Positions 1 to 15,336 of a stretch of DNA of 64,000 nt are shown in pieces (positions within the stretch are counted from its first letter, which is position 1; each line of letters opens with the position of its first letter). The position numbers and the translations under genes are program-made. Source of the DNA: Pirellulales bacterium (GTDB lineage: Bacteria; Planctomycetota; Planctomycetia; Pirellulales; JAICIG01); NCBI GenBank assembly GCA_035531595.1, contig DATKSN010000233.1, positions 4,414 through 68,413 on the forward strand, written 5' to 3'. A model generated the notes under the pieces. It was not told the origin of the DNA. It searched no databases and saw only the letters and a list, made by a program, of their open reading frames with translations.

Positions 1-980
1 ACGAAGCTGTCCGGCCAACTCCGCACAAACCGCCGGCCCCCAACGCCGAGCGACGCAGCAACTCCTTCGATGTCGACAGCCGGCAGATTTTGAAGGACCG
101 TGCGAAGTCGCTGAAAATGGGCGCGTTGGAACGGTACATCTCGCGCCGCAGACGTCCGTTGCCAATTCGCTGGATTGTCCCCCGTCAACAGGAAGTACGC
201 CAATGAGCTCCAGGCGAACAGGTCGCAGCGCTCGTCGACACGGCCGCCAGCGGCACGCACTTCGGGTGGGAAAAACCCCTCGGCATATCGTTCCGGCGGG
301 AACATCACCCGCCAGGCGCCGTCGCTTCGACCGTTGACGATGTTCTCGGAAGCGACGTAGTGCGGGCCGTCCATTTCGTCAACCCAGATCGCCGCCGGGA
401 AAGGGCCGTTCAACACGAGTCCTTTTCCATGCATCTGTTGCATAAATTGCAGAAGCCGAGCAAGCAATTGCAATACTCGGCGCGGCGACGGCTGCACGAC
501 CCTCTTCCAGGTTGCCAAGTCTTGTCCGTGGATCTTCTCGAACACCAGCACAGGCTCCTTGTCGATGAGCCGGCCGGAGCGGGGGAAGGAAAATTGGTCC
601 TGATCGTTTCGCAGCCTCAAGACGTCGAGGGGCTCCGGCAACAGGTTTGTCTCGCGGATCCCGAGGACACTTTTTGCCTCGAAGCGCGATTGTTCGCGGC
701 GCAGGTTGACGTACTCCCTGTCGTCGCATCGCGTGTAAACGATGGACTTCAACAATACGTCGAGGCATTCGTCTAAATCGGCTTCTTCCGGCCGCCCTTC
801 TTCGAACTTGAAGTTGCGGAAGATCTTCTTGCCAGTGTAAAGGCCGTGCCAGGGCGTTTCGGCGATCGTGCCCGTCACCGTGTAGATCGGCTGATTGCCC
901 GAAACAACCCCGTCAGGACTGTCAGAGATTCCTTCAACGCGCAAATGGTCGTGCAGGCGCGCGCCAGGCGTTAGTTTCAC
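1..980 (-). CDS. Kinase-fold protein with degenerate catalytic motifs (pseudokinase-like); C-terminus lies beyond the left edge
   Basis: It is absent from the ORF track because it runs off the window. My reverse-strand translation starts at GTG 980-978, with GGAGG 5 nt upstream and 2 nt after the TGA of the upstream kinase gene. It stays open to nt 1: VKLTPGARLHDHLRVEG...LLQFMQQMHGKGLVLNGPFPAAIWVDE...FPPEV...RCDLFAWSSLAYFLLTGDNP. The kinase C-lobe pattern is present (APE-like FPPE, subdomain-IX-like DLFAWSSLAYFLLTG). No HRD/DxKxxN loop or DFG aspartate is seen. Confidence 0.6.
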   Translation of the reverse strand, partial: MKLTPGARLHDHLRVEGISDSPDGVVSGNQPIYTVTGTIAETPWHGLYTGKKIFRNFKFEEGRPEEADLDECLDVLLKSIVYTRCDDREYVNLRREQSRFEAKSVLGIRETNLLPEPLDVLRLRNDQDQFSFPRSGRLIDKEPVLVFEKIHGQDLATWKRVVQPSPRRVLQLLARLLQFMQQMHGKGLVLNGPFPAAIWVDEMDGPHYVASENIVNGRSDGAWRVMFPPERYAEGFFPPEVRAAGGRVDERCDLFAWSSLAYFLLTGDNPANWQRTSAARDVPFQRAHFQRLRTVLQNLPAVDIEGVAASLGVGGRRFVRSWPDSF

Positions 981-982
981 GG

Positions 983-2077
983 TCACCTCCGCAATCGCTC
1001 GATTTCGTCATACAGTGCCTGCCCGTCACGCGGCCGCGCAGCAGGCGACCCCTCGAGGCAACGTTGGACGAAGTCATAGGTGCTTTGGCCGCATTTTCCT
1101 TTGAGCAGGTCCCAATTCCATCGGTCGGGCGGAACAGCTTTTGGCCCCGCGTCTCCGAGCCTTGACTGCATGAACTCCGCCGGCTCAACGCCCGTCAGCA
1201 TGTGGTACACGGTGCTGCCAAAAGCGTAGGAGTCGACTGCCGCGGTCCAGCGGAGTCCATCCTTGTCGGTGTCGCATTCCGGCGCGCCGTACCCCGACGT
1301 TCTGGCGCCGAGGGCCCTCGGGTTGCCATTGATTCGTAGAAAGCAACCGCCCATGTCGACAACGACCGCTTGGTCGTGTGGCCCGACAAGAATGTTCTCT
1401 GGTTTCAAATCCTGGTATATTATCTGCCAACGGGCAGCGTTGCGCATTGTGAATGGCCTGTGCAACACACGCAAGACATTGCTGACTTGTTGCATTATGA
1501 GCAATGCCCTTTCCTCGGAGACGCCATGCGAGCATTCTTTCTTAAGGAGATCAGCGACCGTTCTGCCGGTAATGTGCTCCATCACGAGGTACGGCTCGGA
1601 GGAAAGCATCGACTCGTCGTCGTACTTCCAGGCAGACCCACCTACGTCAATATGAGGTCCCTCAAGACTCGGGTTCCAATCGAAGACGTAATCATTGGGG
1701 TTGGGCACCGCATTGCAACCTTCGTTCTTGAGCAGCACAAGGATACGTCGCTCGATCTGAAGCTGCTGTCGTGGCCCCTTGAGTTTCCGCGCGACATTCT
1801 CGCGGTCGCGCCCTTTCATTTCAAACGCGACGTCGTAACGAAGCGTTGTCTTGATCAAAACCTCGGCCCCGGTTTGGAGATCGAGCCCGTTCAGCAATAG
1901 ACCACAGCCTCCCGACTTAAAAAACGATTTGACCTCGTATCGCTCTGCGACGCGCTTAGCCACGGTATATTTTTGGCCCTCGTTCGCGCCGCGCGGAACC
2001 TTGGCTTCAACAAACCGGCGGTTTCGGTAGTCGAATTCCCGCCAATCGCTCAACTCTTGGCTTGAACGTCGTGCCAT
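983..2077 (-). CDS. Hanks-type Ser/Thr protein kinase, catalytic residues retained
   Basis: The track ORF 983..2083 starts at TTG; I prefer the ATG at 2077. Motifs: G-loop SGGCGLL, AEVLIK lysine, catalytic loop IYQDLKPENIL, DMG (DFG equivalent), GYGAPE, DSYAFGSTVYHMLTG. Confidence 0.85.
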   Translation of the reverse strand: MARRSSQELSDWREFDYRNRRFVEAKVPRGANEGQKYTVAKRVAERYEVKSFFKSGGCGLLLNGLDLQTGAEVLIKTTLRYDVAFEMKGRDRENVARKLKGPRQQLQIERRILVLLKNEGCNAVPNPNDYVFDWNPSLEGPHIDVGGSAWKYDDESMLSSEPYLVMEHITGRTVADLLKKECSHGVSEERALLIMQQVSNVLRVLHRPFTMRNAARWQIIYQDLKPENILVGPHDQAVVVDMGGCFLRINGNPRALGARTSGYGAPECDTDKDGLRWTAAVDSYAFGSTVYHMLTGVEPAEFMQSRLGDAGPKAVPPDRWNWDLLKGKCGQSTYDFVQRCLEGSPAARPRDGQALYDEIERLRR

Positions 2078-2128
2078 ACGCAAGCGTCGTTCTAAATCGA
2101 AGGAGGAGCGGAGAATTCTCTGAACGAC

Positions 2129-2923
2129 TTATTTCATAATTTCAAATTTGATCCGCACGATTCCTCCAAGGACGAGTCGGCTCCCATCGATCAAAGGATA
2201 ATCAACAAGGTCAGCGGCCAGTACGCGTTCGAACTGAGTACCCGTATTCTTGGCCAACGGCCGAAGGACGAAGCTTTGGGATTCCCTTGATCGCAATACA
2301 ATGGCGTGCTTTCGGGAGATCCGACGGGCCTCCTCCGGCGCAACGAGTTCTGCGAGGTCAAGATCCGGGAAATCGCCGCGTACCGGATCACTGCGCCCGA
2401 TCATCACTACATCCTTGTTCAAGACGTGGTAGCAAAGTGGTTGCCGATCCTTGGAATACACAACGAGGCACGGGCTGCCAGCCGGAGGCCGCTGCGCTAG
2501 AGCTGGCGCGACGGCCGGCGGATTAGCCGGAATTGGCGGATTGCTCGACGCGAGATCCCGCGCCTGCAGTTCAGCGCCACAAACGCAGAAGCTGTCGGCG
2601 TATTCCGACCCATAAGTCATGTCGCAGTCAGGGCACACACGGCTCCCGCTCGCAGCACCGGCCCGCGGCCCCTCTTCCGCTGACACCGACTGCGGCGAAA
2701 CAGCACTTGACGAATCAGCCGGATCCAACGCGGCGTCAAAGGGGCCTTCCGCAGGGCTTGCCGGAACGGTTGTGCTGTTGGCTTCGTTGGAGATTGACGT
2801 GCCGCACAACGAACAGGATTTCGATTCCGCGGCATGAGGCTCGCCGCAGACTACGCACGCCAGAGCTGCCATGGGGATCACTTTGGGTTGAAAGTTCGCG
2901 TTCGACGAGGTGTCGAGCTTCAA
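2129..2923 (-). CDS. FHA-domain protein with two N-terminal Cys4 zinc ribbons
   Basis: CVVCG..CSLCG and CPDCD..CVCG ribbons are followed by a Pro/Ala linker and a C-terminal FHA domain (VVMIGRS...ISRKHAIVLRS...NTGTQF). The TTG start at 2923 overlaps the vWA stop (TTGA). ATG 2872 is an alternative start. Confidence 0.8.
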   Translation of the reverse strand: MKLDTSSNANFQPKVIPMAALACVVCGEPHAAESKSCSLCGTSISNEANSTTVPASPAEGPFDAALDPADSSSAVSPQSVSAEEGPRAGAASGSRVCPDCDMTYGSEYADSFCVCGAELQARDLASSNPPIPANPPAVAPALAQRPPAGSPCLVVYSKDRQPLCYHVLNKDVVMIGRSDPVRGDFPDLDLAELVAPEEARRISRKHAIVLRSRESQSFVLRPLAKNTGTQFERVLAADLVDYPLIDGSRLVLGGIVRIKFEIMK

Positions 2924-4335
2924 AAATCATCGATGTCAACGACGCCGACGGCTTCTTCCACCTTGGACGACGCGGCCAACGACCGATTGAGCATTTCTTG
3001 CGAGATCGTTCCCTTTGCCAGGAACTCGTCGCGCATTTTGCGATAGGAATTGGCATTCGCCTGGTCAGAGAAGTCTTCGTATTTCCCGATCAGGAGGTCA
3101 ATCAACTTGGCCACCGCCGTCCTGTCCTTCTCGGTCCCTCGCCCGGCATTGAGTGCATCTATTTTACTCTGCAGGAACAAGACCTGGCGTTGGACTTCCG
3201 CTTGGGCGATGACGCGACGAACTTCACCGATTCGCAGCATCGCGCGCTCAGCGTCAACGGTATATTCCACCGCAATGTTCGCTTCGGACTTCTGTTGAGT
3301 GACATCCAACGCGGGGATATCGTAAGTCAACGTCGCCTTTGCAATCCGGAAACGGCGGCCCGCCTCCCGCGCCGGCAACGTTGTCTGAAATAGAAACTCG
3401 TATGAAGAACCTTTCTCCATGTATTCGATAGGCAGCACGATGCAGTTGCTGGCGTCAGGGCTCATGGAGCCAACGTAAAGCACCTCGGGCTTCGTGCGAT
3501 ATAGTTCGCGCACGAAGAGTTCAGGGGAGAGCCAGAGGGAAAGAGTCACGTTCGTCGCAAGAATGTTCTTCTGGGCTTGAAGCACGGCGCCGAGATCCCG
3601 CTCGGCGTCCGTGTCGTCCTTGATATGGCTGAACTTTCCCCCCATCGTGGTTTTGCAGATCTCGGTCAGAAATTCGCCGCGACAATCGCCCGTTCCGAAC
3701 GCATGGATCGGGACATGATGTTCCTCTGCCAGAACACGCGCCTGTGCGACAGCAAACTCGGGCTCTTGATCCTCTCCGTCGGTGAGCACAACAACTTTTG
3801 ACGTTCCGTTCGCGATCGGCGCCGCGCCGAGGGCGTTGATTGCCGCTTGAAACCCACGCCCCATCGATGTTCCTCCGCCCCCCGCATTCGAGAGCTCAGC
3901 CACCGCAGTTTTGAGGTCGCGCGCGTCGGCGCCCGAGACGCAACTCGCCAATGGGTAAGCAAGATGGTCGAATGCGATGAGCGTCATGCGGTCGCTCGCA
4001 TTGATCTGCGCCGCCAATCGCTCGACCACTTGTTGGGCTACTTCGCGACGGGTGGGCACCGACGACTCAACGAATGTGACGTCTCGCCCGTCCGAGGTTC
4101 CCCGCGAAACCACGCGCGCGTTCGGGTCGTCGCGAATGAGCGAATTCATTGAACCGCTCACGTCGACGACCACGACGAGATGCGCCGGTAACGGGGTGGC
4201 TGTCGTCGTTTCCAGCAACGGGCCAAGCTTGGCGATGTTCGGCCTGATCGTGACAAGGGCGTACAAGTCCTCGGACTTGCCGGCGAGCACGTGCGGTTGG
4301 TCGACCTTGCAGTCGAGAATGAATTCTTCAGCCAT
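2920..4335 (-). CDS. von Willebrand factor A (vWA) domain protein with intact MIDAS, long helical C-terminal extension
   Basis: MIDAS motifs: VVVVDVSGSMN (DxSxS), GGGTSMG, VVVLTDGEDQ. The start was moved to ATG 4335 (MAEEFILDC), 2 nt after the PP2C gene stop. The track ORF begins at 4392, inside the upstream gene. Confidence 0.85.
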   Translation of the reverse strand: MAEEFILDCKVDQPHVLAGKSEDLYALVTIRPNIAKLGPLLETTTATPLPAHLVVVVDVSGSMNSLIRDDPNARVVSRGTSDGRDVTFVESSVPTRREVAQQVVERLAAQINASDRMTLIAFDHLAYPLASCVSGADARDLKTAVAELSNAGGGGTSMGRGFQAAINALGAAPIANGTSKVVVLTDGEDQEPEFAVAQARVLAEEHHVPIHAFGTGDCRGEFLTEICKTTMGGKFSHIKDDTDAERDLGAVLQAQKNILATNVTLSLWLSPELFVRELYRTKPEVLYVGSMSPDASNCIVLPIEYMEKGSSYEFLFQTTLPAREAGRRFRIAKATLTYDIPALDVTQQKSEANIAVEYTVDAERAMLRIGEVRRVIAQAEVQRQVLFLQSKIDALNAGRGTEKDRTAVAKLIDLLIGKYEDFSDQANANSYRKMRDEFLAKGTISQEMLNRSLAASSKVEEAVGVVDIDDF

Positions 4336-4337
4336 AA

Positions 4338-6311
4338 TCAGCCGTTCTCCTTCGTTGGTGGCGGATCGCCAATGACCTTGATGACCGCGCACGTGATATT
4401 GTCGCCGAAGCCATTCGGCTCCGCAACCGATGGCAATCGCTGAAGCGCATCCGCGGCGTCGACAAGCCGTTCAGCGATCGCTTGAGCAGAAAGGCACCTG
4501 CAGTCGCGGACGATCGCCGCGACCTCGTCCGGTCCGAGGAATACGCCCTCTTCGACCAGACCGTCCGTGCAAAGCACGAGCACATCACCTGGGCGAAGAG
4601 GCCAATGGGCAATCTGCGGCGTCGATCTCTCAACGTCGGTCGCCGTGGCTCCGTTCGGGTCGCGGCGGCAGGCCCCCAGGCAGCAGCGCAATGATTTCGC
4701 CTCAACACCCATGTCTCGGACGTGTTCAGGGGGCGTTGGCGCCGCCAGAGTCGTCGAGCGAACATCGCCGTCCACCGTGAGTTGTTCCGCCAGAGGCCCT
4801 TCGATCAGGTATGCCCGACTGTCTCCGGCGTTTGCAATGTGCAGGACGTTGCCATGTAGCAAACCGACAACGGCTGTAGTGCTCATTACGTCGGACTCGC
4901 GAAAGTCCGGGGGTAGTTGGCCTTGGTCGATGGCCGTTCGGACGATTTCCGTCCCTGCTTCAACAAAGCACCGCGAAAGCGACGCGGCGATGGTGGCTCG
5001 CGTAGATAGGTCCAACTCAGAACTCGCGGTTTTTGCCAGTGCGTCGCAGGCAATGCGGCTGGCCCTCTCGCCGCTCCCGATACGAGCAGTGCTGACGCCG
5101 TCGAGCACACATACAAGCGCCGCCGGCGCCTCGAATGGACGTTCGATCGCTTCGGAGGGCAAAGCACGCCGTACTGTTCTCGAAATCAGCCTGAACCCGT
5201 CGGCGCATCGGTTGAGGGCCGTGACGATACGCCGCGCAATGCCTTGAGTCGCGACCGCATGGGGGCGCCCACTTACCGGGACCGTGAAGACGGCGAATTG
5301 GTCTTGGTTCGCAGACCCCATTGCCGTCTTCGCGCGGCCGGCGCGCGTCAAGCCACCGATTTCGTGCCGAACCTTTGCACTTACGACGTACCGGACCCCA
5401 GCGCGCCAGACTGCCGCCTCGAGGTCGGCCAAAAAATCCTGCGTTGACGGAAATCGTGACTTCGGATCTACCCGAAGTCCGCGTTCCACCACCGGAGCGA
5501 TGCCGGGTGGCAAATTGGGCTTATAAATCCTGAGCGGCGGAAACTCGAAATCGAACGCTTCCAGGCCTCGACCTGGAAAACCACTCGGCAGCAGGCCCGC
5601 CAGCCAATAGTAGGCATACATGCTCATGTGGAATACATCGGTCGCCGACGTGATTTGATCGCCGCGAAATCGGCATACCTCAGGTGGAGAATAGCGCGGG
5701 GATATGCGGATCGACGCCGGGCATTCGTATGCCTTGTAAACCGCCAAATCGAGGTTGGTGACTCGAATGCAATCGCCTGCATCCTCGAGCTGCTCCGGGT
5801 CGAAGTTCAGCCAAACGAGGTCGCGGTCGTGCAACGGCTTCAACACCGAGTGCAGTGTTCGACAGGCATCGACGAGGGCGGCCACGCTCGAAACCCATTC
5901 GCGCCAAGCGGGGTCGCTCCCGTGGCCGTTCAACGTAAATGGCCCTCCCTGCCCCGCCTCGGCAAGCACGATCGCCCCTGCGTTGACGGGAACGACTTTG
6001 ATTCGTGGCAAGATGGGAAGTTCGACTTGTGACCGTTGCTCGACCATCGGCTGGAACTCGGCCCAACGCTTCGAGTTCAAACCGTGAGCGCGGTGCGTTC
6101 GGCCATCCGAGGAAGTCACCACGAGACCTTGAAATGGGTCAGAGGGCCAAGAGCCGCCCCAGCCGGCACAATCGACGGATTCGCCGCCTTCCAATTCAAG
6201 CGAGTTTGGCGGCGCGTCGTTGGCCGCGAAAATCTCGTCTAGCTCCGAGTTGCAGTGATCGCAAAACTCGGAGTCCAACGATTCGAGGTCGCAGGCTGGG
6301 CACTTGACCAT
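4338..6311 (-). CDS. Zinc ribbon + degenerate kinase-like domain + PP2C Ser/Thr phosphatase fusion
   Basis: Start chosen at ATG 6311 (MVKCPACDLESLDSEFCDHC, a zinc ribbon). The middle region is kinase-like: LHDRDLVWLNFDPEQL, VTNLDLAV, YSPPEV, ATDVFHMSMYAYYWLAG. The C-terminal PP2C motifs are VLDGVSTARIGSGERAS, NAGDSRAYL, LVLCTDGLVE and DNITCAVIKV. Confidence 0.8.
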   Translation of the reverse strand: MVKCPACDLESLDSEFCDHCNSELDEIFAANDAPPNSLELEGGESVDCAGWGGSWPSDPFQGLVVTSSDGRTHRAHGLNSKRWAEFQPMVEQRSQVELPILPRIKVVPVNAGAIVLAEAGQGGPFTLNGHGSDPAWREWVSSVAALVDACRTLHSVLKPLHDRDLVWLNFDPEQLEDAGDCIRVTNLDLAVYKAYECPASIRISPRYSPPEVCRFRGDQITSATDVFHMSMYAYYWLAGLLPSGFPGRGLEAFDFEFPPLRIYKPNLPPGIAPVVERGLRVDPKSRFPSTQDFLADLEAAVWRAGVRYVVSAKVRHEIGGLTRAGRAKTAMGSANQDQFAVFTVPVSGRPHAVATQGIARRIVTALNRCADGFRLISRTVRRALPSEAIERPFEAPAALVCVLDGVSTARIGSGERASRIACDALAKTASSELDLSTRATIAASLSRCFVEAGTEIVRTAIDQGQLPPDFRESDVMSTTAVVGLLHGNVLHIANAGDSRAYLIEGPLAEQLTVDGDVRSTTLAAPTPPEHVRDMGVEAKSLRCCLGACRRDPNGATATDVERSTPQIAHWPLRPGDVLVLCTDGLVEEGVFLGPDEVAAIVRDCRCLSAQAIAERLVDAADALQRLPSVAEPNGFGDNITCAVIKVIGDPPPTKENG

Positions 6312-6760
6312 ATGTATAACGCTGAAAACTGGCGGCGTTGAGTCGTCCTGATTAGTCCACGATGCCACGTCCGAAGTCAATGTAGCAAAGAAAAAACGCA
6401 CACGCAAAAGAGAAACCAGATTCCGTTTTGGCCCAGGGCGCCCTATCCACCGCTGCGCAGCCGTTTCGAGCCGACGACCCAACGGATTTCAATCGCCGCC
6501 GCATCGCGCTATTCCGAGGCCGCGAAATACGCTCAACGGGGCGGCGCGTTTCATCGATCGAAACAGCGGGGGCGTCGGACCCGGGCATAAGTATATATGC
6601 CCCGTACCCGGAAGCTAGTGGGCGAGTGAAAAAGAATGGCTGAGCGCGGTGTCGGCCAACACGCCGCCCCCACGCCGGATTAAGACACCCAGGCATTTGC
6701 CGCAAACGCCGTGGACCGCAAGGCTCGTCTGGGAAATGGGTTAGCTGAATCCAGCGTGTC

Positions 6761-6784
6761 TTGAATTCGACGTTGAATTCGACG
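6761..6784. repeat. 12-bp tandem direct repeat ttgaattcgacg x2
   Basis: Read directly from the sequence. It lies about 20 bp beyond the stop of the truncated HTH ORF. Function unknown; it could be an operator or iteron. Confidence 0.5.
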
Positions 6785-6804
6785 TATTGACTTGGCGGTG
6801 CGGA

Positions 6805-6975
6805 TCAGCCCGTCCGCCTGCGTTTCGCGGCGGGGTCGTCGACCAGCTTGACCACGACCCGCTTGCCGAGACCATTGGCCAGCGAGAGCAACGTCAACAG
6901 CGTCGGGTTCGAGGCAACGCCGTTTTCGAGACGACTGATCGCGGCCTTGTCCGTTCCGGCACGTGGCGCCGGCAT
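6805..6975 (-). pseudogene. 5'-truncated XRE/Cro-type helix-turn-helix gene remnant (56 codons)
   Basis: Below the ORF-track size cutoff. My translation: MPAPRAGTDKAAISRLENGVASNPTLLTLLSLANGLGKRVVVKLVDDPAAKRRRTG. This matches the recognition-helix half of XRE HTH domains (..ISRLENG..P.L.TL..LA.aLG). The first helices are missing. Confidence 0.4.
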
Positions 6976-6987
6976 CACGATTGTTGA

Positions 6988-7001
6988 TTATTGTACAATA
7001 A
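6988..7001. promoter_or_regulatory. Perfect 14-bp palindrome TTATTGTACAATAA upstream of the HTH remnant (possible operator)
   Basis: AT-rich perfect palindrome in GC-rich surroundings, 13 nt upstream of the remnant's ATG on the minus strand. Confidence 0.35.
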
Positions 7002-7102
7002 CCGCCGAGAAAATCCATATTGGCGCCGGCCTCCCCGCACGGCGACGCAGGTGAGGAGCTGACGGTTGATCCGATGCCCTGAAACCGGTGCGGCCTGGCA
7101 AT

Positions 7103-7255
7103 GTAGTAGGCACACTCCGTGTGCCGTAACCTCCGGCGAGTCGACGTCGCGACCGCATCAATCACGGCCTTCGCCGCGCTCCTGCGTGTGCCGCAACCTC
7201 CGGCGAGTCGACGTCGGCGGGCGGAAAGCTACGGCACACGGAGTGTGCCTGCTAC
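7103..7255. repeat. Long-range inverted repeat (26 nt arms, 1 mismatch) enclosing about 100 bp
   Basis: Arm 7103-7128 (gtagtaggcacactccgtgtgccgta) is complementary to arm 7230-7255 (tacggcacacggagtgtgcctgctac). Each arm also contains a 7-bp mini-hairpin (ggcacac/gtgtgcc). Confidence 0.8.
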
Positions 7256-7274
7256 TTTGGGCTACTGCCCGACG
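7146..7274 (+). repeat. Direct repeat X (left copy) flanking the vapBC block
   Basis: About 129 bp. It is near-identical to 8856-8983 apart from a short divergent patch (ccgcgctcctgcgtgtgccgcaacc versus ccgcacctcccctgtgccgtaacc). Confidence 0.85.
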
Positions 7275-7318
7275 CCGCGATTCGCGCGGCGGGCCACGTT
7301 TCGGCCAGCGCAGCCCTA

Positions 7319-7524
7319 CCTTGCGATTCGTCGGACCCAATCCTGTGAATCCCGTCAATCCTGTCGAAGAAAAGCATTCGAGGTGAGTTTCAGGATGGAG
7401 CGCAGCCGCGAGGTCGACCGCGATGAGCGCATCGAATTCAAAAAGCGGCTAGGAAGGCGGGCACATCGGCGGACGCCATCAACTCCGGGTTAACGGTCAT
7501 CAGGCCTTCCGCCTGGGCGGCACG
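7319..7524 (+). repeat. Direct repeat Y (copy 1): vapC 3' end plus about 120 bp downstream
   Basis: About 206 bp, matched at high identity by 8647-8853. It includes the atcctgtgaatcccgtcaatcctgtc motif and the last 28 codons of vapC. Confidence 0.85.
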
Positions 7525-7935
7525 GAGCAGCCGCTGATCAGCGGCGACCAAGATAAAGGTAGTCGTAACAGGTTGCGATCGAGCGAAACCCATGAACGAC
7601 ATGAGGATCGAGGCATCCGCGGAGTTGAGGTTGTGACGATCGATCAAGTCGATTCCGTCAAGCATGTCGCCGAACTCAATGGCCAAGACGCCGAAATCCG
7701 CGTCGTCAATGACTTCGGCGCGTAACGCTGAGCGAGCCACCGAGAAGGTAGCTGCGTCGAGCGCGCCTCCGTTGCGCTTGCGGACCAGGGCGCCACAAGT
7801 CTCCGAATAACTCAGGACGGTCGTGATCATCTGCGCGCGAGAAGCGGCCGCGAAAAGTGCGTTGACGGTCTGGTGCCCGATCTCGGGTGCATAACGTTGC
7901 GCCAGCGCACTCGCATCCCAGAGAAGGAAAACCAC
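7438..7935 (-). CDS. vapC: PIN-domain ribonuclease toxin (VapC-like)
   Basis: GTG start. The acidic residues are in PIN-like spacing: LLWDASAL, SYSET, NSADASIL, VAADQRL. A small upstream partner gene lies 6 nt away. Confidence 0.75.
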   Translation of the reverse strand: MVFLLWDASALAQRYAPEIGHQTVNALFAAASRAQMITTVLSYSETCGALVRKRNGGALDAATFSVARSALRAEVIDDADFGVLAIEFGDMLDGIDLIDRHNLNSADASILMSFMGFARSQPVTTTFILVAADQRLLRAAQAEGLMTVNPELMASADVPAFLAAF

Positions 7936-7941
7936 GGGCTG

Positions 7942-8160
7942 CTACTCCTCGCCATGCTCGCGGCGCATGCGGATGATATCAGCCGAAAGGAAGCGATCCG
8001 CCGGCCGGATGCCTCGCGCCAGCATCATGGCTTGGGCCTTTTCCGCCGTTGCCGTGGGATCGATGACAAAACCCATGCGGTCGTCCAAATCCGCAACGGC
8101 TTTTTGAAGCGCGCGTTTGTCTAGCAGTTTGCTTGCCGGTTGAACCGGGGAGATGGCCAT
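7942..8160 (-). CDS. vapB: Putative VapB-type antitoxin
   Basis: Small ORF immediately upstream of the PIN gene. I prefer the start at ATG 8160 (MAISPVQPASKLLDKRALQ) over the track start at 8184. Assigned by position only. Confidence 0.55.
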   Translation of the reverse strand: MAISPVQPASKLLDKRALQKAVADLDDRMGFVIDPTATAEKAQAMMLARGIRPADRFLSADIIRMRREHGEE

Positions 8161-8229
8161 AGACGTACTCCTGTGCGCGATCAACGTCCCACTTACCCTA
8201 TTGCAATTCTGGCCAAGACCATCGATCAG

Positions 8230-8523
8230 GTCAATGGCGAAGCCGTCGCCACAACTCCCCTACCGGTTTTCGGATTGTTCGTGGCGACGGGCATCGCATT
8301 CCTGGCGTTTTTCATCCGGCCCACCGACCTCGACCTGCGGTTCGGCCTGGGGGTGGGGGCGATTTTCGCCGCTGTGGCGAGCCAGTACGTCGTCAGTTCG
8401 TCGTTGGCCGCCACCCATGTGCTGACGATGGCCGACTTCCTGCATATCCTGGCGTTCGTGTTCATTTTCCTCTCGCTCGTCGAATCGACCGTTTCGCCGC
8501 ACCTCTACACCACCGGTGGGTGA
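8230..8523 (+). pseudogene. Fragment resembling the M1-M3 transmembrane region of a pentameric ligand-gated ion channel
   Basis: LPVFGLFVATGIAFLAFFIRPTDLDLRFGLGVGAIFAAVASQYVVSSSLAATHVLTMADFLHILAFVFIFLSLVESTV fits the pLGIC pattern (R..lg.t......P....T..D.f.......f..l.e..v). There is no extracellular domain, no M4 and no credible start. The upstream part would overlap vapB. Confidence 0.35.
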
Positions 8524-8646
8524 GTCGGGCATGCCCGCAAGACGGGCGATAGGGGGTAAGGTCAGGCGCGTGAAGCTCCTTCAGGCGCTTCGGCCAGCCA
8601 GCGAAGGCGAGACACGATGACCAGGAGGAACAGGATGGAAAGCAAT

Positions 8647-8853
8647 CCTTTGCGATTTGTCGGACCATATCCTGTGAATCCGGTCAATCCTGTCCAAAAA
8701 AAGCGTTCGAGCGGAGTTTCAGGATGGAGCGCAGCCGCGAGGTCGACCGCGATGAGCGCATCGAATTCAAAAAGCGGCTAGGAACGCGGGCACATCGGCG
8801 GACGCCATCAACTCCGGGTTAACGGTCATCAGGCCCTCCGCCTGGGCGGCACG
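8647..8853 (+). repeat. Direct repeat Y' (copy 2)
   Basis: Matches 7319-7524. It is joined directly to X' at 8853/8856. Confidence 0.85.
8767..8853 (-). pseudogene. vapC 3' remnant (last 28 codons plus stop)
   Basis: Translates to RAAQAEGLMTVNPELMASADVPAFLAAF*, identical to the C-terminus of the intact PIN protein. It is truncated where repeat X' begins. Confidence 0.7.
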
Positions 8854-8855
8854 AC

Positions 8856-8983
8856 GTCGCGACCGCATCAATCACGGCCTTCGCCGCACCTCCCCTGTGC
8901 CGTAACCTCCGGCGAGTCGACGTCGGCGGGCGGAAAGCTACGGCACACGGAGTGTGCCTGCTACTTTGGGCTACTGCCCGACG
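8856..8983 (+). repeat. Direct repeat X' (right copy)
   Basis: See 7146-7274. It carries only the 3' arm of the inverted repeat. Confidence 0.85.
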
Positions 8984-9108
8984 GATCGTGACCGGCAAGC
9001 TGCTCTTGGCAAGAAAGCGGACTTGGGATTATCTTGACCCTGGCGGTGGTCGTTTGGTTGCGCGCTGCGCGGCGCGGCCGCCGGAGTCTCGAACGAAAGG
9101 AGTCGACC

Positions 9109-10053
9109 ATGTACTGGGGGGAATGGAAACCGTATGTTCCCGTGGCTAAGCGGCGCGCCCAGGCCGCCCAGTTCGCGGCGAAGCAGGCGAAGAAAGAGGG
9201 TCGCGACCTGCGGCCGGTGAATATCGAAGGCCGCAAGATCGCACGCACGTTCTGGGGCGGAGCCTGGTGCGACAATCTGGAACGCTACAGCGACTTTGAA
9301 AACCGGCTTCCGCGCGGCCGCACCTACGTTCGCAACGGGTCGGTGATCGACCTGCACATCCAGCCCGGACGCGTGAAAGCCTTCGTCAGCGGCTCGGAGG
9401 TCTACACCGTCAAGATCGAGATCGACCGGCTCAAGCCGGCCGACTGGAAGCGGATCAAGGCCGAGTGCTCGGAAGCGATCGATTCGCTGCTCGACCTGTT
9501 GGCCGGTCGCTTTTCCGACGGCGTCATGCGGCGGCTGACGCGCGAGCGGGACGGCCTTTTTCCGCACCCCAAGGAAATCCATATGTCGTGCAGTTGCCCC
9601 GACTGGGCCGGACTGTGCAAACATATCGCCGCCGTACTCTACGGCGTCGCGGCGCGACTCGACGAGGAACCCCAACTCCTGTTTCTGCTCCGCGACGTCG
9701 ACCACGGCGAGCTGGTCAGCCAGGCGGTCTCGGGCGACAACCTCGCCGGCGCCCTGGGCTCGCGAGGCGACGCCCTGGCCGGAGAAGACCTGGGCGCCAT
9801 GTTCGGGATCGATCTCGATTCATCCGCAGTCGGCCAGGCCGCCACGAAAAGCGGGCGCCGGCGCCGCTCGCCGAGCCGCGCCGCCGAGCCGGCCGTGGCG
9901 ACAATCGTCGCGCCCAAGGTGAAGCGTAAGGCGCATGCCACCGCCGCAGCCCTCCCGCCGGCGGCCGCCGAGGAAACGAAAGCCGCCGCGCGCACGCGGG
10001 CCGCCAGGAAGAAACCGCTTGCCGCGGCCAAGCGAAAGCGCGGCGGCGTTTAG
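9109..10053 (+). CDS. SWIM zinc-finger protein with Lys/Arg/Ala-rich basic tail
   Basis: AAGGAG RBS sits before ATG 9109 (MYWGEWKPYVP). The SWIM motif is CSCPDWAGLCKHIAAVLYGV. The C-terminus is a basic low-complexity tail (..AARKKPLAAAKRKRGGV). No SNF2 helicase partner is adjacent. Confidence 0.8.
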   Translation: MYWGEWKPYVPVAKRRAQAAQFAAKQAKKEGRDLRPVNIEGRKIARTFWGGAWCDNLERYSDFENRLPRGRTYVRNGSVIDLHIQPGRVKAFVSGSEVYTVKIEIDRLKPADWKRIKAECSEAIDSLLDLLAGRFSDGVMRRLTRERDGLFPHPKEIHMSCSCPDWAGLCKHIAAVLYGVAARLDEEPQLLFLLRDVDHGELVSQAVSGDNLAGALGSRGDALAGEDLGAMFGIDLDSSAVGQAATKSGRRRRSPSRAAEPAVATIVAPKVKRKAHATAAALPPAAAEETKAAARTRAARKKPLAAAKRKRGGV

Positions 10054-10075
10054 TTCTTCTTCACCCGCAACCGAG

Positions 10076-10174
10076 AATGAGACGTTCACGGTGGCTGGGG
10101 CGGAGCCTAAGCGATGCCCCGGTCGCTATGTAGCCGGGGCATCGCTTACGCTCTGCCACCAGCCGGCGGGGGCT
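10076..10174 (+). repeat. Palindromic element family PAL, copy a (partial)
   Basis: Core: cacggtggctggggcggagcctaagcgatgccccgg...ccggggcatcgcttacgctctgccaccagcc. It starts about 20 bp after the SWIM gene stop. Confidence 0.8.
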
Positions 10175-10237
10175 TGAACCGGTCTTGCGTCCAGGCGAAG
10201 ATCTGGTTAATCTCCCGTTCCTTTCCCGCAACGTATC

Positions 10238-10684
10238 GTGACTCAAAGCGTCCAAATCGGGCCCGACCGGTTTTCCGTCCGACGGCGGCTTTTGCTGGCC
10301 GTGGCGGGCGTGTGCTGGTTGGCGCCCCTGGTGGTGGCTGGTTGCTTGCGGCCGGACCCGAACGGGCTCGGCACGCACCAGCAACTCGGCCTGCCTCCGT
10401 GTACGTTCGTTTGGCTGTTCGGCATGCGATGTCCCTCGTGCGGCATGACCACCTCGTGGGCCCATGCGGCGCGTGGGAATTGGACCGCGGCGCTGGCGTC
10501 GAATTCGGGCGGGGCCTTGCTGGCCGGCGTGGCGGCGCTGGCGGGGCCCTGGCTGGTGGTTTCGGCCGCCCGCGGGCGCTGGCTGACACGGCCGCCCAGC
10601 GAGCGCGCGTTGGTGGGCGCCTCCCTGGGGGTGGTCGTGGTGACGTTGATCGACTGGATTTGCCGGCTGAGCTTCGGCCGATAG
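10238..10684 (+). CDS. DUF2752-family membrane protein
   Basis: CTFVWLFGMRCPSCGMTTSW motif (CPxCGxT) followed by hydrophobic segments. GTG start. Confidence 0.7.
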   Translation: MTQSVQIGPDRFSVRRRLLLAVAGVCWLAPLVVAGCLRPDPNGLGTHQQLGLPPCTFVWLFGMRCPSCGMTTSWAHAARGNWTAALASNSGGALLAGVAALAGPWLVVSAARGRWLTRPPSERALVGASLGVVVVTLIDWICRLSFGR

Positions 10685-10712
10685 TTTCGTTCAAGAGGAA
10701 CGAGGAAATACC

Positions 10713-11393
10713 ATGCACCGGTCTCATTCGCGGACGTGCTGCTACTTGTTGGCCCTTGTGGCGGCCGGCGGTATCGTGCCGTCGCAAGGCGGTTGTCGGA
10801 CCATGTTGACCACGGCCGTCTATCTGATCAAGGGAACCGACGTGGACCCGGAATACGTCGGGCTCAAGGACAAAACGGTGGCCATCGTCTGCCGTCCCGC
10901 GCAAAGCTTGCAATTCGGTTCCAGCAGCGTGGCGACGGAAATCGCCACGGAGGTCGGCCGATTGCTGAAGTCGCACCTTCGCGGCAGGATCAAGGTCATT
11001 CCCGCCCGCGACGTCGATAACTGGATCGACGAGAACAGCCGCGGCGAGGACGACTTCGCCGACATCGGCAACGCCCTCGAAGCCGACATGGTACTGGGAA
11101 TCGAACTGGAAGCATTCGAGTTGAGCCAAGGACAGACCCTTTGGCAAGGCCAGTCGCAGGTCCGGCTGAAAGTGCTCGACATGACGATCGAGGACGAACG
11201 GGACCGGATCGTTTTCGACAAGATCATGCCGCACGTCGTCTTTCCGCCCAAGGCCGGCATTCCGGTCCAAGACCGTTCCGAGGACGCGTTCCGCCGCCAA
11301 TACGTGAGCGTCTTGTCCGACACGATCGGCCGCTACTTCTACCCGCACGATCCGCGCGACGTCTTCGCCCAGGACTCCGGGCCGTTCAACTGA
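10713..11393 (+). CDS. Hypothetical lipoprotein
   Basis: The N-terminus MHRSHSRTCCYLLALVAAGGIVPSQGGC looks like a signal peptide with a lipobox Cys. Codon bias is consistent with coding. No family recognised. Confidence 0.6.
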   Translation: MHRSHSRTCCYLLALVAAGGIVPSQGGCRTMLTTAVYLIKGTDVDPEYVGLKDKTVAIVCRPAQSLQFGSSSVATEIATEVGRLLKSHLRGRIKVIPARDVDNWIDENSRGEDDFADIGNALEADMVLGIELEAFELSQGQTLWQGQSQVRLKVLDMTIEDERDRIVFDKIMPHVVFPPKAGIPVQDRSEDAFRRQYVSVLSDTIGRYFYPHDPRDVFAQDSGPFN

Positions 11394-11500
11394 GCCGCGC
11401 GCACGACATGCCATCGTGACCTATGCTTGGTATGGACGGAACGCCACGGAGGGCGTTCCCTACAGACCTGACTTGATTCATCCGCGGTGAACCGACCGAC

Positions 11501-12628
11501 ATGACGGCAACCGTCGAAATCCCATTGCCGAACACGACGATTCCGGAGGTCACGCCGGCCCGGCGGCATTGGACGACGTCGCGGACGCTCGACGAGTTCG
11601 ATGCGCTCGAAGCCGCTTGGACGACGTGCCCAGCCGCCGCTTCCAACCCGATGCGGTCGTTTTCCTGGCTGCGCTCGGCGATCGCGAGCCTGGCCCAAGA
11701 GCGGAAAATCCAGGTGATCGCGCTGTGCGACGGCGCGCGACTGTTGGCCGCGGCGCCTTTGATCAGGGCTCAGGCCGGCCGCTGGGAACTCTTGAACCAT
11801 TACAAGCTCTACGAGCCGGCCGATCTGGTGTACGCCGACGCGGCCGCCTTGGCCGAGTTGACAGGCGAGCTGGCTCGCCGTGGATTGCCGCTTTTCCTGG
11901 GGCGTCTGCCGGCCGATTCGCCCACGGTCGCGGCCATCCAAAGGGCTTACGGCCGGCGGGGGCGCGTCGTCGTCCGTCCCCAGGCCGGCTTCCCCTACAT
12001 TCCGCTCGACGCCGCCTGGTCGGCGCCGGAAGGCCGGCTCTCGTCGCGCCGCCGCGGCGACTTTCGCCGTGCTCGGCGGCACGCCGAGGAGCAGGGCGAA
12101 GTGGCCGGCGAGATCGTCGCCCCGTCGTCGCGCGACGTCGATGAACTGCTCGACGTCGTGTTTGAGATCGAGGGTCTTTCCTGGAAGGGCGCGCAGGGGA
12201 CGGCCTTGGCCCGTGACGCCGCCCGCGCCGCCTTCTACCGCCGTTTCGCACGCCGCGCCGCGCGCGACGGCAGCCTGCGATTGGGCTTCCTGCGGATCGG
12301 CGGCAACGTGGCGGCCGTGCAGATCAGCGTGGTCCAGGCCGATGCCCTGTGGGTGCTCAAGATCGGCTACGATCCGCGCTTCCATCGGGCCAGTCCCGGC
12401 ATCCTGCTGATGGTCGAGCAGATCAAGGATGCCGTGGCGGCCGGACTTTCGCGGTACGAGTTGCTTGGGACGGTCGAGCCGTGGATTCAGGTCTGGACCG
12501 AACACCAGCGGGCCTGCGTCTCGTTGCGCGCTTATCCGGCCAACCTGCGGGGCGCGGCCACGCTGGCGCGGGAAGCGGCGGCCATGGGATACCGGCGGCT
12601 TCTGGGGCGCGCGGCATGCGAACGCTGA
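11501..12628 (+). CDS. GNAT/FemAB-related acetyltransferase (CelD-like, Acetyltransf_6 type)
   Basis: C-terminal FLRIGGNVAAVQISVVQADALWVLKIGYDPRFHRASPGILLMVEQIKDAVAAGLSRYELLG is typical of CelD-like GNAT proteins. Confidence 0.6.
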   Translation: MTATVEIPLPNTTIPEVTPARRHWTTSRTLDEFDALEAAWTTCPAAASNPMRSFSWLRSAIASLAQERKIQVIALCDGARLLAAAPLIRAQAGRWELLNHYKLYEPADLVYADAAALAELTGELARRGLPLFLGRLPADSPTVAAIQRAYGRRGRVVVRPQAGFPYIPLDAAWSAPEGRLSSRRRGDFRRARRHAEEQGEVAGEIVAPSSRDVDELLDVVFEIEGLSWKGAQGTALARDAARAAFYRRFARRAARDGSLRLGFLRIGGNVAAVQISVVQADALWVLKIGYDPRFHRASPGILLMVEQIKDAVAAGLSRYELLGTVEPWIQVWTEHQRACVSLRAYPANLRGAATLAREAAAMGYRRLLGRAACER

Positions 12629-13551
12629 CGAGCTACCTGCGGCGAACCGCTTCAGGCTGCCTTTGGCCGCTTGCTCGGCGCGCCGCCCGCGGCTACATCG
12701 CCGGACCCGAACTCGGCGACGCGCTGCGCGTCGCCGATCATCTGGGCGGACGCGGGTTTCGTTCGACGCTGGGCTTTTGGGACGGCGAAGGGGACTCGCC
12801 GCGCGGCGTGGCCGACCAATACCTGGCCGCGCTCGACGCCCTGGCCGCGCGGCGCGCCGAACATGCCGCCGAGGCGGGCGGCGACTCGTATCTCTCGATC
12901 AAGCCGCCCGCCTTGCAATTCTCGCCGGAGTTGCTGGGTGAAGTGGCCCACCGCGCGGCGCGGCGGCAGGTACGGCTGCACTTCGATTCCCATGGGCCGG
13001 AAACGGCCGCCGCCACCTGGCAGGCGATCGCGGCGCTCGCCGGCGCGGGATCGGAGCTGAGTTGTACGTTGCCCGGCCGCTGGCGAAGGAGCCTTGACGA
13101 CGCCGAGTCGGCGATCGCGCGGGGTGTGATCGCCCGCGTGGTCAAGGGGCAATGGAGCGACGTCGAGCAGCCGGAGCTCGGCATGCGCGAGGGCTTCTTG
13201 AACGTCATTGATCGTTTGGCGGGCCGAGCGCGGCATGTGGCGGTGGCCAGCCACGACGCGCCTTTGGCGGCCGAGGCGCTCAAGCGGCTGCGGGCAAGCG
13301 GAACCTCATGCGATCTGGAGCTTCTTTACGGACTGCCGGTGCGCGCCGCGCTCGACGTGGCGGCCGAGCTTGGCGTACCCGTTCGGATTTACGTCCCGTA
13401 CGGCCGAGCTTATCTTCCCTATTGCCTGGCCCAGGCCCGGCGTCAGCCGCGCCTGCTTTGGTGGCTGTTGCGCGATTCCCTCGTTCCCACGCTCCGCGTG
13501 GGAGCGCACCGTCGGCCGCTCCGCGGCCCTGGCGGCTCGCTCAAAGGCTAG
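12616..13551 (+). CDS. Proline dehydrogenase-family protein
   Basis: Start moved to ATG 12616 (MRTLTSYL), which overlaps the GNAT gene end by 13 nt. Motifs: YLSIKPPAL, ARVVKGQW, VASHDA, LELLYGLP, RIYVPYGRAYLPYCLAQARRQP. The last 20 or so codons are encoded by a REP element. Confidence 0.65.
   Translation: MRTLTSYLRRTASGCLWPLARRAARGYIAGPELGDALRVADHLGGRGFRSTLGFWDGEGDSPRGVADQYLAALDALAARRAEHAAEAGGDSYLSIKPPALQFSPELLGEVAHRAARRQVRLHFDSHGPETAAATWQAIAALAGAGSELSCTLPGRWRRSLDDAESAIARGVIARVVKGQWSDVEQPELGMREGFLNVIDRLAGRARHVAVASHDAPLAAEALKRLRASGTSCDLELLYGLPVRAALDVAAELGVPVRIYVPYGRAYLPYCLAQARRQPRLLWWLLRDSLVPTLRVGAHRRPLRGPGGSLKG
13478..13528 (+). repeat. REP-like element (gttcccacgctccgcgtgg family), copy 1
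   Basis: ccctcgttcccacgctccgcgtgggagcgcaccgtcggccgctccgcggcc. Related copies lie at 13631, 20947, 33187 (inverted) and 63399. Confidence 0.8.
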
Positions 13552-13578
13552 GATGGCAACGCGGCCGACCATCGTAGA

Positions 13579-13622
13579 CATCACGCTCCGCGTGATGAAA
13601 CCACATCACGCGGAGCGTGATG
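13579..13622. repeat. Perfect 19-bp-stem hairpin (catcacgctccgcgtgatg / catcacgcggagcgtgatg, 6-nt loop)
   Basis: Read directly from the sequence. It sits between two REP copies. Confidence 0.85.
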
Positions 13623-13630
13623 ACTACGGT

Positions 13631-13681
13631 CCCTCGTTCCCACGCTCCGCGTGGAAGCGCACCGTCGACCGCTCCGCGGCC
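13631..13681 (+). repeat. REP-like element, copy 2
   Basis: ccctcgttcccacgctccgcgtggaagcgcaccgtcgaccgctccgcggcc. Confidence 0.8.
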
Positions 13682-13829
13682 TGGGGCCGGCTCGCTGGGT
13701 TGAAGCTGTCGTGACGGAGCCGATAGAGTAGAGTTGGAGCTCCCCCACCGGAACGCCGGGCCAGGTGCCTTACCGCATTGTCCAAGTGCCATGCCATCCT
13801 AGACCGCGGTCGGGCAACCGTCGAGGAGG

Positions 13830-14327: not shown

Positions 14328-14475
14328 GCCAATTGCCTCAAAGAGAGATAATGAATGGGATACCCCCCGATGGCATGTTAGTGTAATCGGTTGCCGGCGG
14401 CGTGCCAAGCGGTTGGTGGAGTGGTGAGTAGTGAGTCGCGGCCTGTCGCGAAACACGCGCCGACCGCTATAATCC

Positions 14476-15231: not shown

Positions 15232-15336
15232 TCCGCTTCCCGCGGACGGCCGAAAACAACCATACGGGATGGACCGGCTCTCGCTGAGCGGCGAACTCCC
15301 GTCCCTTGGACACGGGAACCGGACGGGAAATCGCCG

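Follow-up and report, generated by a model that had tools for sequence, protein, structure and literature searches.

A candidate ArnA/ArnB-type phospho-threonine switch encoded by a conserved operon of Pirellulales and related bacteria

Introduction

In Sulfolobus acidocaldarius, ArnB has a tripartite fold in which a vWA domain is combined with a β-sandwich and a helical bundle, and its partner ArnA consists of a Cys4 zinc ribbon, a linker and an FHA domain. ArnA binds ArnB through its zinc finger, where the β-sandwich meets the helical bundle; once ArnC has phosphorylated threonines of the bundle, these are bound by the FHA domain, and PP2A undoes the modification (PMC12852372, PMC6509490, PMC7472852). 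Here, we analyse a five-gene operon located at the left end of a 64,000-nucleotide stretch of a Pirellulales bacterium contig (DATKSN010000233.1; hereafter, the window). We propose that the products of this operon make up a cytoplasmic, self-contained switch of the ArnA/ArnB type, based on phospho-threonine, which would respond to threat or stress rather than exert housekeeping control over a fixed client; we assign a probability of roughly 55% to this reading.

ArnAB takes part in motility and the DNA-damage response of Sulfolobus, and the operon DRA0331-0334 takes part in the response of Deinococcus to radiation or oxidative stress (PMC12852372, PMC10470591, bioRxiv 10.64898/2026.01.23.701218). 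For the Deinococcus operon, a 2026 preprint reports Mn-dependent PP2C activity and an antagonism of the FHA and PP2C proteins on kinases (bioRxiv 10.64898/2026.01.23.701218). According to PMC11090510, TerY-P is composed of the vWA protein TerY, a PP2C phosphatase and a Ser/Thr kinase (Anantharaman 2012) and has defence activity (Gao 2020). To date, our literature search has found no paper describing the present gene set in Planctomycetota or as an anti-phage or defence system.

Results

Organisation of the operon

Five open reading frames (ORFs) are arranged head to tail on the minus strand. We refer to them as G1 to G5 in transcription order and to the comparison loci as L001 to L017.

4338-6311, minus strand: G1, 657 aa; zinc ribbon-pseudokinase-PP2C protein
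2920-4335, minus strand: G2, 471 aa; ArnB-like vWA protein
2129-2923, minus strand: G3, 264 aa from a TTG start (gene callers prefer the ATG at 2872, 247 aa); zinc ribbon-FHA protein
983-2083, minus strand: G4, 366 aa (364 aa from the ATG at 2077); Ser/Thr kinase
1-980, minus strand: G5, GTG start at 980; exits the window at base 1 after 326 codons; full protein, 1646 aa

G1 and G2 meet at TGAttATG, G2 and G3 overlap by TTGA, and G4 and G5 meet at TGAccGTG; the single gap, between G3 and G4, measures 45 nt to the TTG start and 51 nt to the ATG start. The five genes form a tightly, translationally coupled co-directional operon. Promoter- and terminator-like sites in positions 1-7500 were at or below the shuffled expectation, with none beyond chance, and they therefore give no argument against a single transcript. 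The operon region is the lowest 6-kb stretch of the window in GC content (0.593 vs 0.648 for the rest). No hydrophobic segment was detected in G1-G4 by Kyte-Doolittle analysis, no DNA-binding domain was found in these four proteins, and an Rfam scan of the whole 64 kb found nothing. Judged by conserved sequence motifs, the predicted products comprise a phosphorylation writer (G4), an eraser (the PP2C domain of G1), a reader (the FHA domain of G3), a vWA protein with an intact MIDAS (metal-ion-dependent adhesion site) and two pseudokinases.

The vWA protein G2 adopts a predicted ArnB fold

G2 matches Pfam VWA (E 8e-13), and its AlphaFold2 (AF2) model has a pLDDT of 88.1 and a pTM of 0.85. In this model, the vWA domain is inserted in a β-sandwich that is followed by a C-terminal helical bundle, which is the predicted counterpart of the tripartite ArnB arrangement.

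G2, minus strand, parts in the AF2 model: N-terminal β-strands; vWA domain, aa 51-256; β-sandwich, aa 258-359; helical bundle, aa 362-457

When the model was compared with the PDB using Foldseek, the top match was 4FX5 (Caci_2163, a Catenulispora vWA protein; E 1e-25), followed by the ArnAB structure 8S05 (E 2e-22; TM-scores 0.62/0.74, the value of 0.74 being normalised to the target) and the ArnB paralogue 5A8J (E 2e-18); Sec23/Sec24 rank after these. The matches to 8S05, 5A8J and 4FX5 span the whole length of G2, with approximately 460-474 columns each. The MIDAS, which is also a feature of the ArnA/ArnB module, is intact: D58, S60, T156 and D186 are present in 33/33 homologues and S62 in all but one (32/33; D58-x-S60-x-S62). 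Family length is tight, at 465-472 aa, and identity is 51-66% across sequences labelled Pirellulales, Planctomycetaceae, Planctomycetales, Schlesneria and Gemmataceae.

The helical bundle and tail of G2 contain the conserved hydroxyl residues T401 (27 of the 33 homologues), S445, S452, S456 and S457. T401 is followed by an invariant aspartate at +3 (D404), which gives the pT-x-x-D pattern. The protein ends in an acidic tail (..DIDDF) that is disordered yet conserved (...QDIDF). The reading of G2 as a secreted or CLCA-like protein, to which source annotations point, was rejected, given that G2 has no signal or transmembrane segment and that its partners are cytoplasmic.

G3 is the predicted reader

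The adjoining gene G3 encodes a protein with two Cys4 ribbons, for which Pfam returned an FHA match (E 9e-5) and zinc-ribbon matches.

G3, minus strand, parts from Pfam and alignment: Cys4 ribbons, aa 23-40 and 97-115; Pro/Ala/Ser-rich linker; FHA domain, about aa 150-264

The FHA residues GR177, S203RKH206 and N226TGT are conserved in seven homologues. The CxxC-x10-CxxC spacing of ribbon 1 equals that of ArnA C21/C24/C35/C38 (PMC12852372). By its predicted domains, namely, a Cys4 ribbon, a flexible linker and an FHA domain with putative phospho-threonine-binding residues encoded next to G2, the protein is what would be expected of an ArnA-type partner. G3 can be assigned an ArnA/FraH-type architecture from these motifs, with its second ribbon as in FraH-type proteins. 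Since sequence similarity is confined to the vWA core, the G2/G3 pair is classified as ArnAB-like in working and fold, not as a proven orthologue.

The kinase G4 and the phosphatase G1 are the predicted writer and eraser

G4 matches Pfam Pkinase (E 1e-17). Its glycine loop, VLIK78, the αC glutamate E111, YQD225LKPEN230, D243MG and APE269 are conserved in six homologues, none of its windows reaches a Kyte-Doolittle value of >= 1.6, and the protein ends 15 residues past the subdomain XI arginine (ARP349-351 of 366 aa), without a Cys cluster. Together, these features predict a soluble, catalytically competent non-RD Ser/Thr kinase without a sensor or transmembrane domain. Non-RD kinases are usually independent of activation-loop phosphorylation.

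G1 combines three domains:

6252-6302, minus strand: Cys4 zinc ribbon, aa 4-20; CxxC...CxxC, conserved in the family alignment
5367-6134, minus strand: pseudokinase, about aa 60-315; kinase hidden Markov models (HMMs) match aa 144-305, E 6.5e-9
4362-5354, minus strand: PP2C, about aa 320-650; Pfam PP2C, PP2C_2 and SpoIIE matches, NCBIfam Stp1 PP2C 4.5e-16

The PP2C metal motifs NQD335-337, D404G (DGV), GD497SR, TD583G (TDGL) and GD637N are intact and conserved in the family alignment; these motifs and the ribbon are retained even in the Clostridium homologue. The kinase-like regions of both G1 and G5 fall below the Pfam threshold and were found with the kinase models of PADLOC and NCBIfam. Among homologues of G1, the residue at the HRD aspartate varies (D/S/G) and TNLD occurs in place of DFG, so that the catalytic loop is degenerate family-wide and the domain is regarded as a pseudokinase. 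The fusion of a zinc ribbon, a pseudokinase and a PP2C domain is new here. An insertion of approximately 45 residues separates PP2C motif 1 (NQD) from motif 2 (DGV) in G1 (window 5127-5267, aa ~349-395) and is missing in 6/6 aligned homologues. At L005 (8103-9961), either a frameshift or an assembly error divides the G1 homologue into two ORFs (519 and 116 aa) that overlap.

G5 is a giant, predicted membrane-anchored pseudokinase

The remainder of G5 was read from L001 (ENA ERZ27256814, 13356-18296), which is the same contig extended to the left; the first 6.5 kb of the window are identical in it. The full protein has 1646 aa and is encoded by the last gene of the operon, which is followed by a 44-aa ORF and a convergent gene.

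G5, N-terminal ~350 aa: pseudokinase; kinase HMM match, E 2.5e-6; the window shows this part alone
G5, middle: β-rich domain, then long helical repeats with three CxxC...Hx4H fingers (C625, C826, C1049); CxxC at 1150
G5, about aa 1214-1267: transmembrane hairpin of two hydrophobic helices, Kyte-Doolittle maxima 2.27 and 2.47
G5, C-terminal end: helical plus β region with a terminal CxxC at 1615

In an alignment with G4, the catalytic loop of G5 is deleted. The finger residues C625/C628/H640/H645, C826/C829/H841/H846 and C1052/H1064/H1069 are invariant among 12-13 homologues, and C1049 is retained in at least 90%. The AF2 model of aa 1075-1646 (pLDDT 86.7) has a helical hairpin at the hydrophobic segments, and a Foldseek comparison of this model with the PDB and BFVD gave nothing better than E 0.3. 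G5 is probably anchored in the membrane with its bulk in the cytoplasm, because a hairpin keeps both ends on one side, the zinc sites are Cys-based and the partners are cytoplasmic.

Whether the query was G5 by itself or a profile of 13 sequences, the searches gave a family of approximately 16 clusters and nothing outside it. The family is found in one Pirellulales-centred clade, where G5 is the fifth, variable partner of the system. The N-terminal module of G5 and the pseudokinase-cold-shock domain proteins of Firmicute-type cassettes have a common LLPEPLD...EPVLV motif (E 3e-6); therefore, the recurrent fifth component consists of a degenerate kinase joined to a C-terminal module that varies. 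This recurrent pseudokinase component and a 1646-aa membrane protein without a structural relative for its C-terminal region are new here.

A sequence-only reading of the window had described most of these features, and much of it stands. It had placed the five co-directional genes and their three coupling-type junctions at the coordinates given above, with a sole larger gap of 51 nt, which is the distance to the ATG start; it had also claimed a kinase with its Lys, D-x-K-x-x-N and D-x-G motifs intact, a PP2C eraser, an FHA reader, a MIDAS-intact vWA protein, two kinase folds with degenerated catalytic loops, three Cys4 ribbons, a lower GC content and a continuation of the operon past the left edge, all of which were found. 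Its statement that the operon has no transmembrane segment and no visible output was an artefact of the window edge, beyond which full-length G5 has a transmembrane hairpin and three C2H2-like fingers. Its pseudokinase call for the fifth gene is correct, as a description of the N-terminal part in the window only; the idea of a small stand-alone pseudokinase was rejected in view of the 1646 aa of the full protein.

Distribution of the cassette

The same gene order occurs at at least ten independent loci, a far wider recurrence than the single strain to which the sequence-only reading had allowed that it might be confined. The first four genes are conserved as a block across phyla, and the Planctomycetota-wide clade of the cassette is new here; within it, the block was seen on contigs labelled Gemmataceae, Planctomycetaceae and Planctomycetales and on further Pirellulales contigs. 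An HMM search of 1.84 billion representatives (E <= 1e-10) gave 871 relatives, many of them of 400-500 aa and collinear with G2, and the contexts of five of these were read. A contig scan with a single vWA protein gave 2 loci, its peptide patterns being too specific. Searches with tblastn gave homologues on plasmids and none in phages. The loci are as follows:

L003 and L006 (Gemmataceae): G1-G2-G3-G4 order recurs
L004 (Planctomycetaceae): core plus co-linear G5
L005 (1.6-Mb planctomycete contig): G1-G2-G3-G4 order recurs
L007: core without the kinase; Rrf2 regulator after the cassette
L009: all five genes, with co-linear G5
L010: rearranged, G5 linked
L011: G5 homologue by itself
L013: two tandem vWA paralogues (8001-10775) between the PP2C and FHA genes, then a co-linear 1369-aa G5 homologue
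Clostridium sp. contig: PP2C(559)-vWA-FHA-kinase-NYN-kinase-like(531)-459 aa-dynamin-like
L015 (metagenomic): Clostridium-like layout; kinase-like protein fused to a cold-shock domain; weak FHA match in the NYN protein
GCA_016648615.1 (metagenomic): HTH_3-PP2C-vWA-FHA...; intact 99-aa HTH_3 gene directly upstream of the PP2C gene
L014 (metagenomic): FHA-PIN fusion (2866-3702), then kinase, PP2C, FHA and vWA; distantly related to the window cassette
Deinococcus radiodurans DRA0331-0334: vWA-kinase-FHA-PP2C (tblastn vs plasmids)
Trichormus and Nostoc plasmids: vWA-FHA-PP2C clusters (tblastn vs plasmids)

The two vWA paralogues of L013 are a planctomycete-type protein of 469 aa and a divergent one of 450 aa. 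At L014, a type III CRISPR-Cas locus (Cas6, Cas10, RAMPs) immediately follows the cassette (span 9915-17182). The flanking genes differ at every planctomycete site. At L005, a small HNH gene is convergent to the kinase gene. On the 36-kb Trichormus variabilis plasmid B (L017), positions 1-11934 encode three vWA proteins, an ARC6/PARC6-family protein, a serine hydrolase and the vWA-FHA-PP2C trio.

Flanking region of the window

Upstream of the operon, a PIN-domain gene (7438-7935, minus strand) and a small upstream ORF (7942-8184) are bracketed by near-identical direct repeats (7099-7524 and 8641-8983), in which one pair of 213 nt has 93% identity and another of 88 nt has 99%. The repeats hold the palindrome GGCACACGGAGTGTGCC, and the order of their sub-blocks differs between the two copies. 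The region 7099-8983 resembles a repeat element that has been duplicated or rearranged, with a toxin-antitoxin-like pair inside it. Closer to the operon, a 56-aa ORF (6805-6975, minus strand), approximately 490 nt upstream of G1, matches the C-terminal half of HTH_3 only (E 4e-6); it is probably a remnant and may represent a lost or decayed cognate regulator. Additionally, positions 9034-10053 (plus strand) encode a 339-aa protein, apparently without relation to the operon, in which a SWIM zinc finger (E 1e-4) is accompanied by a long tail rich in Ala, Arg and Lys.

Discussion

Proposed mechanism

We place the core among switches of the ArnA/ArnB type, here equipped with a dedicated kinase and a dedicated PP2C phosphatase, because G2 has the ArnB fold and G3 the ArnA/FraH architecture. 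In the proposed scheme, a zinc ribbon of G3 would dock weakly onto G2 where the β-sandwich meets the helical bundle. G4 would phosphorylate Thr/Ser residues of the C-terminal helical bundle or tail of G2, with T401-x-x-D404 as the best candidate, and the FHA domain of G3 would then clamp the phosphorylated bundle, turning a loose complex into one that is tight or oligomeric. The switch would be reset by the PP2C domain of G1, and the ribbon and pseudokinase of the same protein may target it to this complex. The output is expected to pass through protein-protein contacts, such as the MIDAS face or released ribbons, and not through an enzyme in G1-G4. G5 could serve as a scaffold or a sensor, pairing with the kinase module and linking the switch to the membrane; its three C2H2-like fingers might link it to nucleic acid as well. 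More speculatively, the invariant acidic C-terminus of G2 might be a MIDAS ligand, for autoinhibition or head-to-tail assembly, and G5 might be a pseudokinase regulator that pairs with G4, anchors the system at the membrane and senses through its fingers.

Several observations weigh against this reading. A G2 profile matches 5A8J at E 0.005 over vWA positions 162-255 only, and Pfam ArnB_C has no match in G2 at E <= 0.1; as the similarity to ArnB does not go beyond the generic vWA part, it does not establish that the helical bundles share an ancestor. The T401 loop is missing from the distant L015 homologue, and most of the invariant hydroxyls in the G2 tail belong to serine, whereas FHA domains bind phospho-threonine. 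The kinase is missing in some close relatives (L007) and G5 in most, in addition to standing alone at L011; therefore, the five genes are not an obligate unit. Finally, in the Deinococcus study, the FHA and PP2C proteins act on other kinases, not on the vWA protein (bioRxiv 10.64898/2026.01.23.701218).

Biological role

The role that such a switch would play can be read in more than one way. It could be endogenous, like Sulfolobus ArnAB or DRA0331-0334, and adjust gene expression or else a Planctomycetota-specific process of the envelope or membrane, with G5 as a membrane sensor, a role that we consider possible without favouring it. The experimentally studied relatives do act in regulation and stress signalling (PMC12852372, PMC10470591, bioRxiv 10.64898/2026.01.23.701218), the vWA family retains many invariant surface motifs across Planctomycetota within its 465-472 aa, the PP2C gene has an HTH_3 gene, or what is left of one, upstream of it both in the window and in the distant relative GCA_016648615.1, and an Rrf2 regulator follows the L007 cassette. 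Nevertheless, no client or regulator gene is conserved across the neighbourhoods, G1-G4 have no DNA-binding domain, and no cultured model planctomycete is among the named vWA matches. The narrower form of a regulatory role, in which the cassette serves a known machine, either the threonine-phosphorylation pathway of the type VI secretion system (T6SS) or divisome and cell-wall control as in Actinobacteria, is highly improbable. The kinase/PP2C/FHA/vWA set does overlap the PpkA/PppA/Fha1 and FhaA/FhaB-PstP-PknAB clusters, and the sequence-only reading had drawn its analogies from T6SS and the actinobacterial envelope. However, no T6SS, FtsW/PBP or transporter genes adjoin the cassette in the window, L001 or any related locus, the vWA protein is a separate cytoplasmic protein rather than the periplasmic domain of a transmembrane kinase, and G4 has no transmembrane segment. 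A T6SS or divisome cassette was rejected on the absence of client genes from every neighbourhood examined, and the known client pathway that would have made this an ordinary regulatory cassette was likewise not seen in approximately 15 neighbourhoods, which contained no adjoining T6SS, divisome or transporter genes.

Alternatively, the core could be a threat-gated licence for a variable effector, either an NYN/PIN RNase in the Firmicute-type cassettes or G5, in an anti-phage or abortive-infection system; this account, which differs from the preferred switch in biological role and not in core mechanism, is doubtful in our view. The sequence-only reading had also raised conflict or threat sensing, and the NYN/PIN RNases of distant cassettes and the type III CRISPR-Cas locus directly adjoining L014 lend that idea some support. 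The distant cassettes include NYN proteins (one with a weak FHA match), an FHA-PIN fusion, pseudokinase-cold-shock domain proteins, a dynamin-like GTPase, and YARHG and Macro neighbours; copies reside on cyanobacterial plasmids and on the secondary replicon of Deinococcus; the kinase and G5 are gained or lost modularly among variable flanks; no 6-kb stretch of the window is lower in GC than the operon, beside which lie a PIN toxin-like gene and a repeat patch; and TerY-P (vWA + PP2C + kinase) is a validated defence triad (PMC11090510). On the other side, PADLOC gave generic kinase models, one weak G2 match (HEC-01B, E 0.034) and no system-level match, tblastn found no phage homologues, the planctomycete operon lacks a nuclease or toxin domain, and we found no paper tying the gene set to anti-phage activity. 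Moreover, the vWA identity of 51-66% over three orders (Pirellulales, Planctomycetaceae and Gemmataceae labels) declines with taxonomy, which resembles vertical inheritance more than defence-island turnover; the accessory status that the sequence-only reading had suggested is favoured by the low GC and variable flanks and disfavoured by this pattern. A more ambitious version, which we regard as unlikely, would see an undescribed, phylum-spanning phospho-threonine-gated conflict system made up of the core and an LPEPLD-type pseudokinase, in which an ArnAB-like clamp licenses NYN or PIN RNases linked to FHA (Firmicute-type cassettes) or, in Pirellulales, a G5 whose fingers sense invader nucleic acid.

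With the switch as the preferred reading, the cassette joins scattered observations from Planctomycetota, Firmicutes, Deinococcota and cyanobacterial plasmids into one family. ArnA/ArnB has so far been an archaeal curiosity, and the study of the Deinococcus operon has just begun; the bacterial cassettes supply a candidate writer, eraser, reader and substrate together. The degenerate kinase fused to a nucleic-acid-binding or membrane module, along with the RNase-bearing variants, provides a testable hypothesis for the missing output. If the defence reading is true, the cassette represents a new family of immune systems; if not, it represents a stress switch that is widespread in bacteria and has a scaffold of eukaryote-like (Sec23/24) type.

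Comparison with known systems

The sequence-only reading had stated that no characterised example of this architecture was known in Planctomycetota. This is correct for the phylum, but experimentally studied relatives exist outside it, and these, namely, ArnA/ArnB (8S05, E 2e-22) and the homologous DRA0331-0334, are closer than the T6SS and actinobacterial systems that had been named. With respect to the T6SS pathway (PpkA/PppA/Fha1), no T6SS genes occur in any neighbourhood, and the G2 vWA domain is a separate soluble protein.

TerY-P resembles the present cassette in having a vWA protein, a PP2C phosphatase and an active kinase within one mobile cassette, in its proposed phosphorylation switch and in its association with conflict; the present operon likewise has the vWA, PP2C and Ser/Thr kinase genes in one cassette. 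In contrast, the TerY-P kinase has a C-terminal zinc ribbon or OB fold (PMC11090510), of which G4 has neither, and TerY-P has no FHA protein. G2 is, moreover, a 471-aa ArnB-type protein, and no PADLOC system model matched the locus. Membership in TerY-P was rejected, given the kinase without the zinc ribbon/OB fusion and the presence of an FHA protein.

The Sec23/Sec24 core of COPII is similar in its zinc finger, vWA-like trunk, β-barrel and helical domain (Foldseek E about 1e-13, TMq about 0.46), a likeness also remarked for ArnAB (PMC12852372). It differs in that the operon has neither a gelsolin domain, with G2 ending after the bundle, nor a Sar1-type small GTPase, and in that the zinc finger is on a separate protein. 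As the fold occurs in many bacteria (4FX5, YfbK), it says nothing specific on planctomycete membranes, and a Sec23/24-like pair acting in planctomycete membrane remodelling is a more remote reading to which the evidence gives no support. For the reader protein, the domain order of FraH from Anabaena (double zinc ribbon, Pro-rich linker, FHA) is identical to that of G3. FraH functions in filament integrity and in heterocyst membranes.

The DRA0331-0334 operon is a homologous set. Its vWA protein matches G2 residues 53-359 with 25.6% identity (tblastn, E 1e-10), the neighbouring, co-directional genes are annotated as kinase, FHA and PP2C, and the FHA protein has been described as a FraH orthologue. 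It differs in its order, vWA-kinase-FHA-PP2C, and in lacking a G5-like gene. Its kinase has C-terminal transmembrane helices, unlike G4, which has no hydrophobic segment; in the Pirellulales operon, the transmembrane hairpin is in G5 instead. The Deinococcus PP2C protein has approximately 616 aa, with a long N-terminal extension that weakly aligns with the C-lobe of the G1 pseudokinase. The 2026 preprint annotates DRA0334 aa 210-368 as an FHA domain of the kinase-interacting type (KI-FHA) (bioRxiv 10.64898/2026.01.23.701218). In the DRA0334 homologue at L016 (10997-12847), aa 210-368 align weakly (E 0.09) with motifs of the G1 pseudokinase C-lobe, pairing LTDLDPQQL with WLNFDPEQL, TAPEV with SPPEV, and GVYLLGALLYRWLTG with DVFHMSMYAYYWLAG. 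This segment of DRA0334 may be a degenerate kinase domain, not an FHA domain.

Relative to ArnA/ArnB of S. acidocaldarius (PDB 8S05, 5A8J, 5A8I), sequence similarity is marginal, the host is a bacterium and there is no archaellum. The Pirellulales operon itself encodes the kinase and the phosphatase, the latter a PP2C and not a PP2A; this phosphatase comes with a ribbon and a pseudokinase of its own, two ribbons are present in the FHA protein, and a giant membrane pseudokinase is added. Nevertheless, the two systems are alike in the adjacent genes for a tripartite MIDAS vWA protein and a Cys4 ribbon-linker-FHA protein, in the fold match over the whole length, in the cysteine spacing of the ribbon, and in control by a Ser/Thr kinase and a phosphatase.

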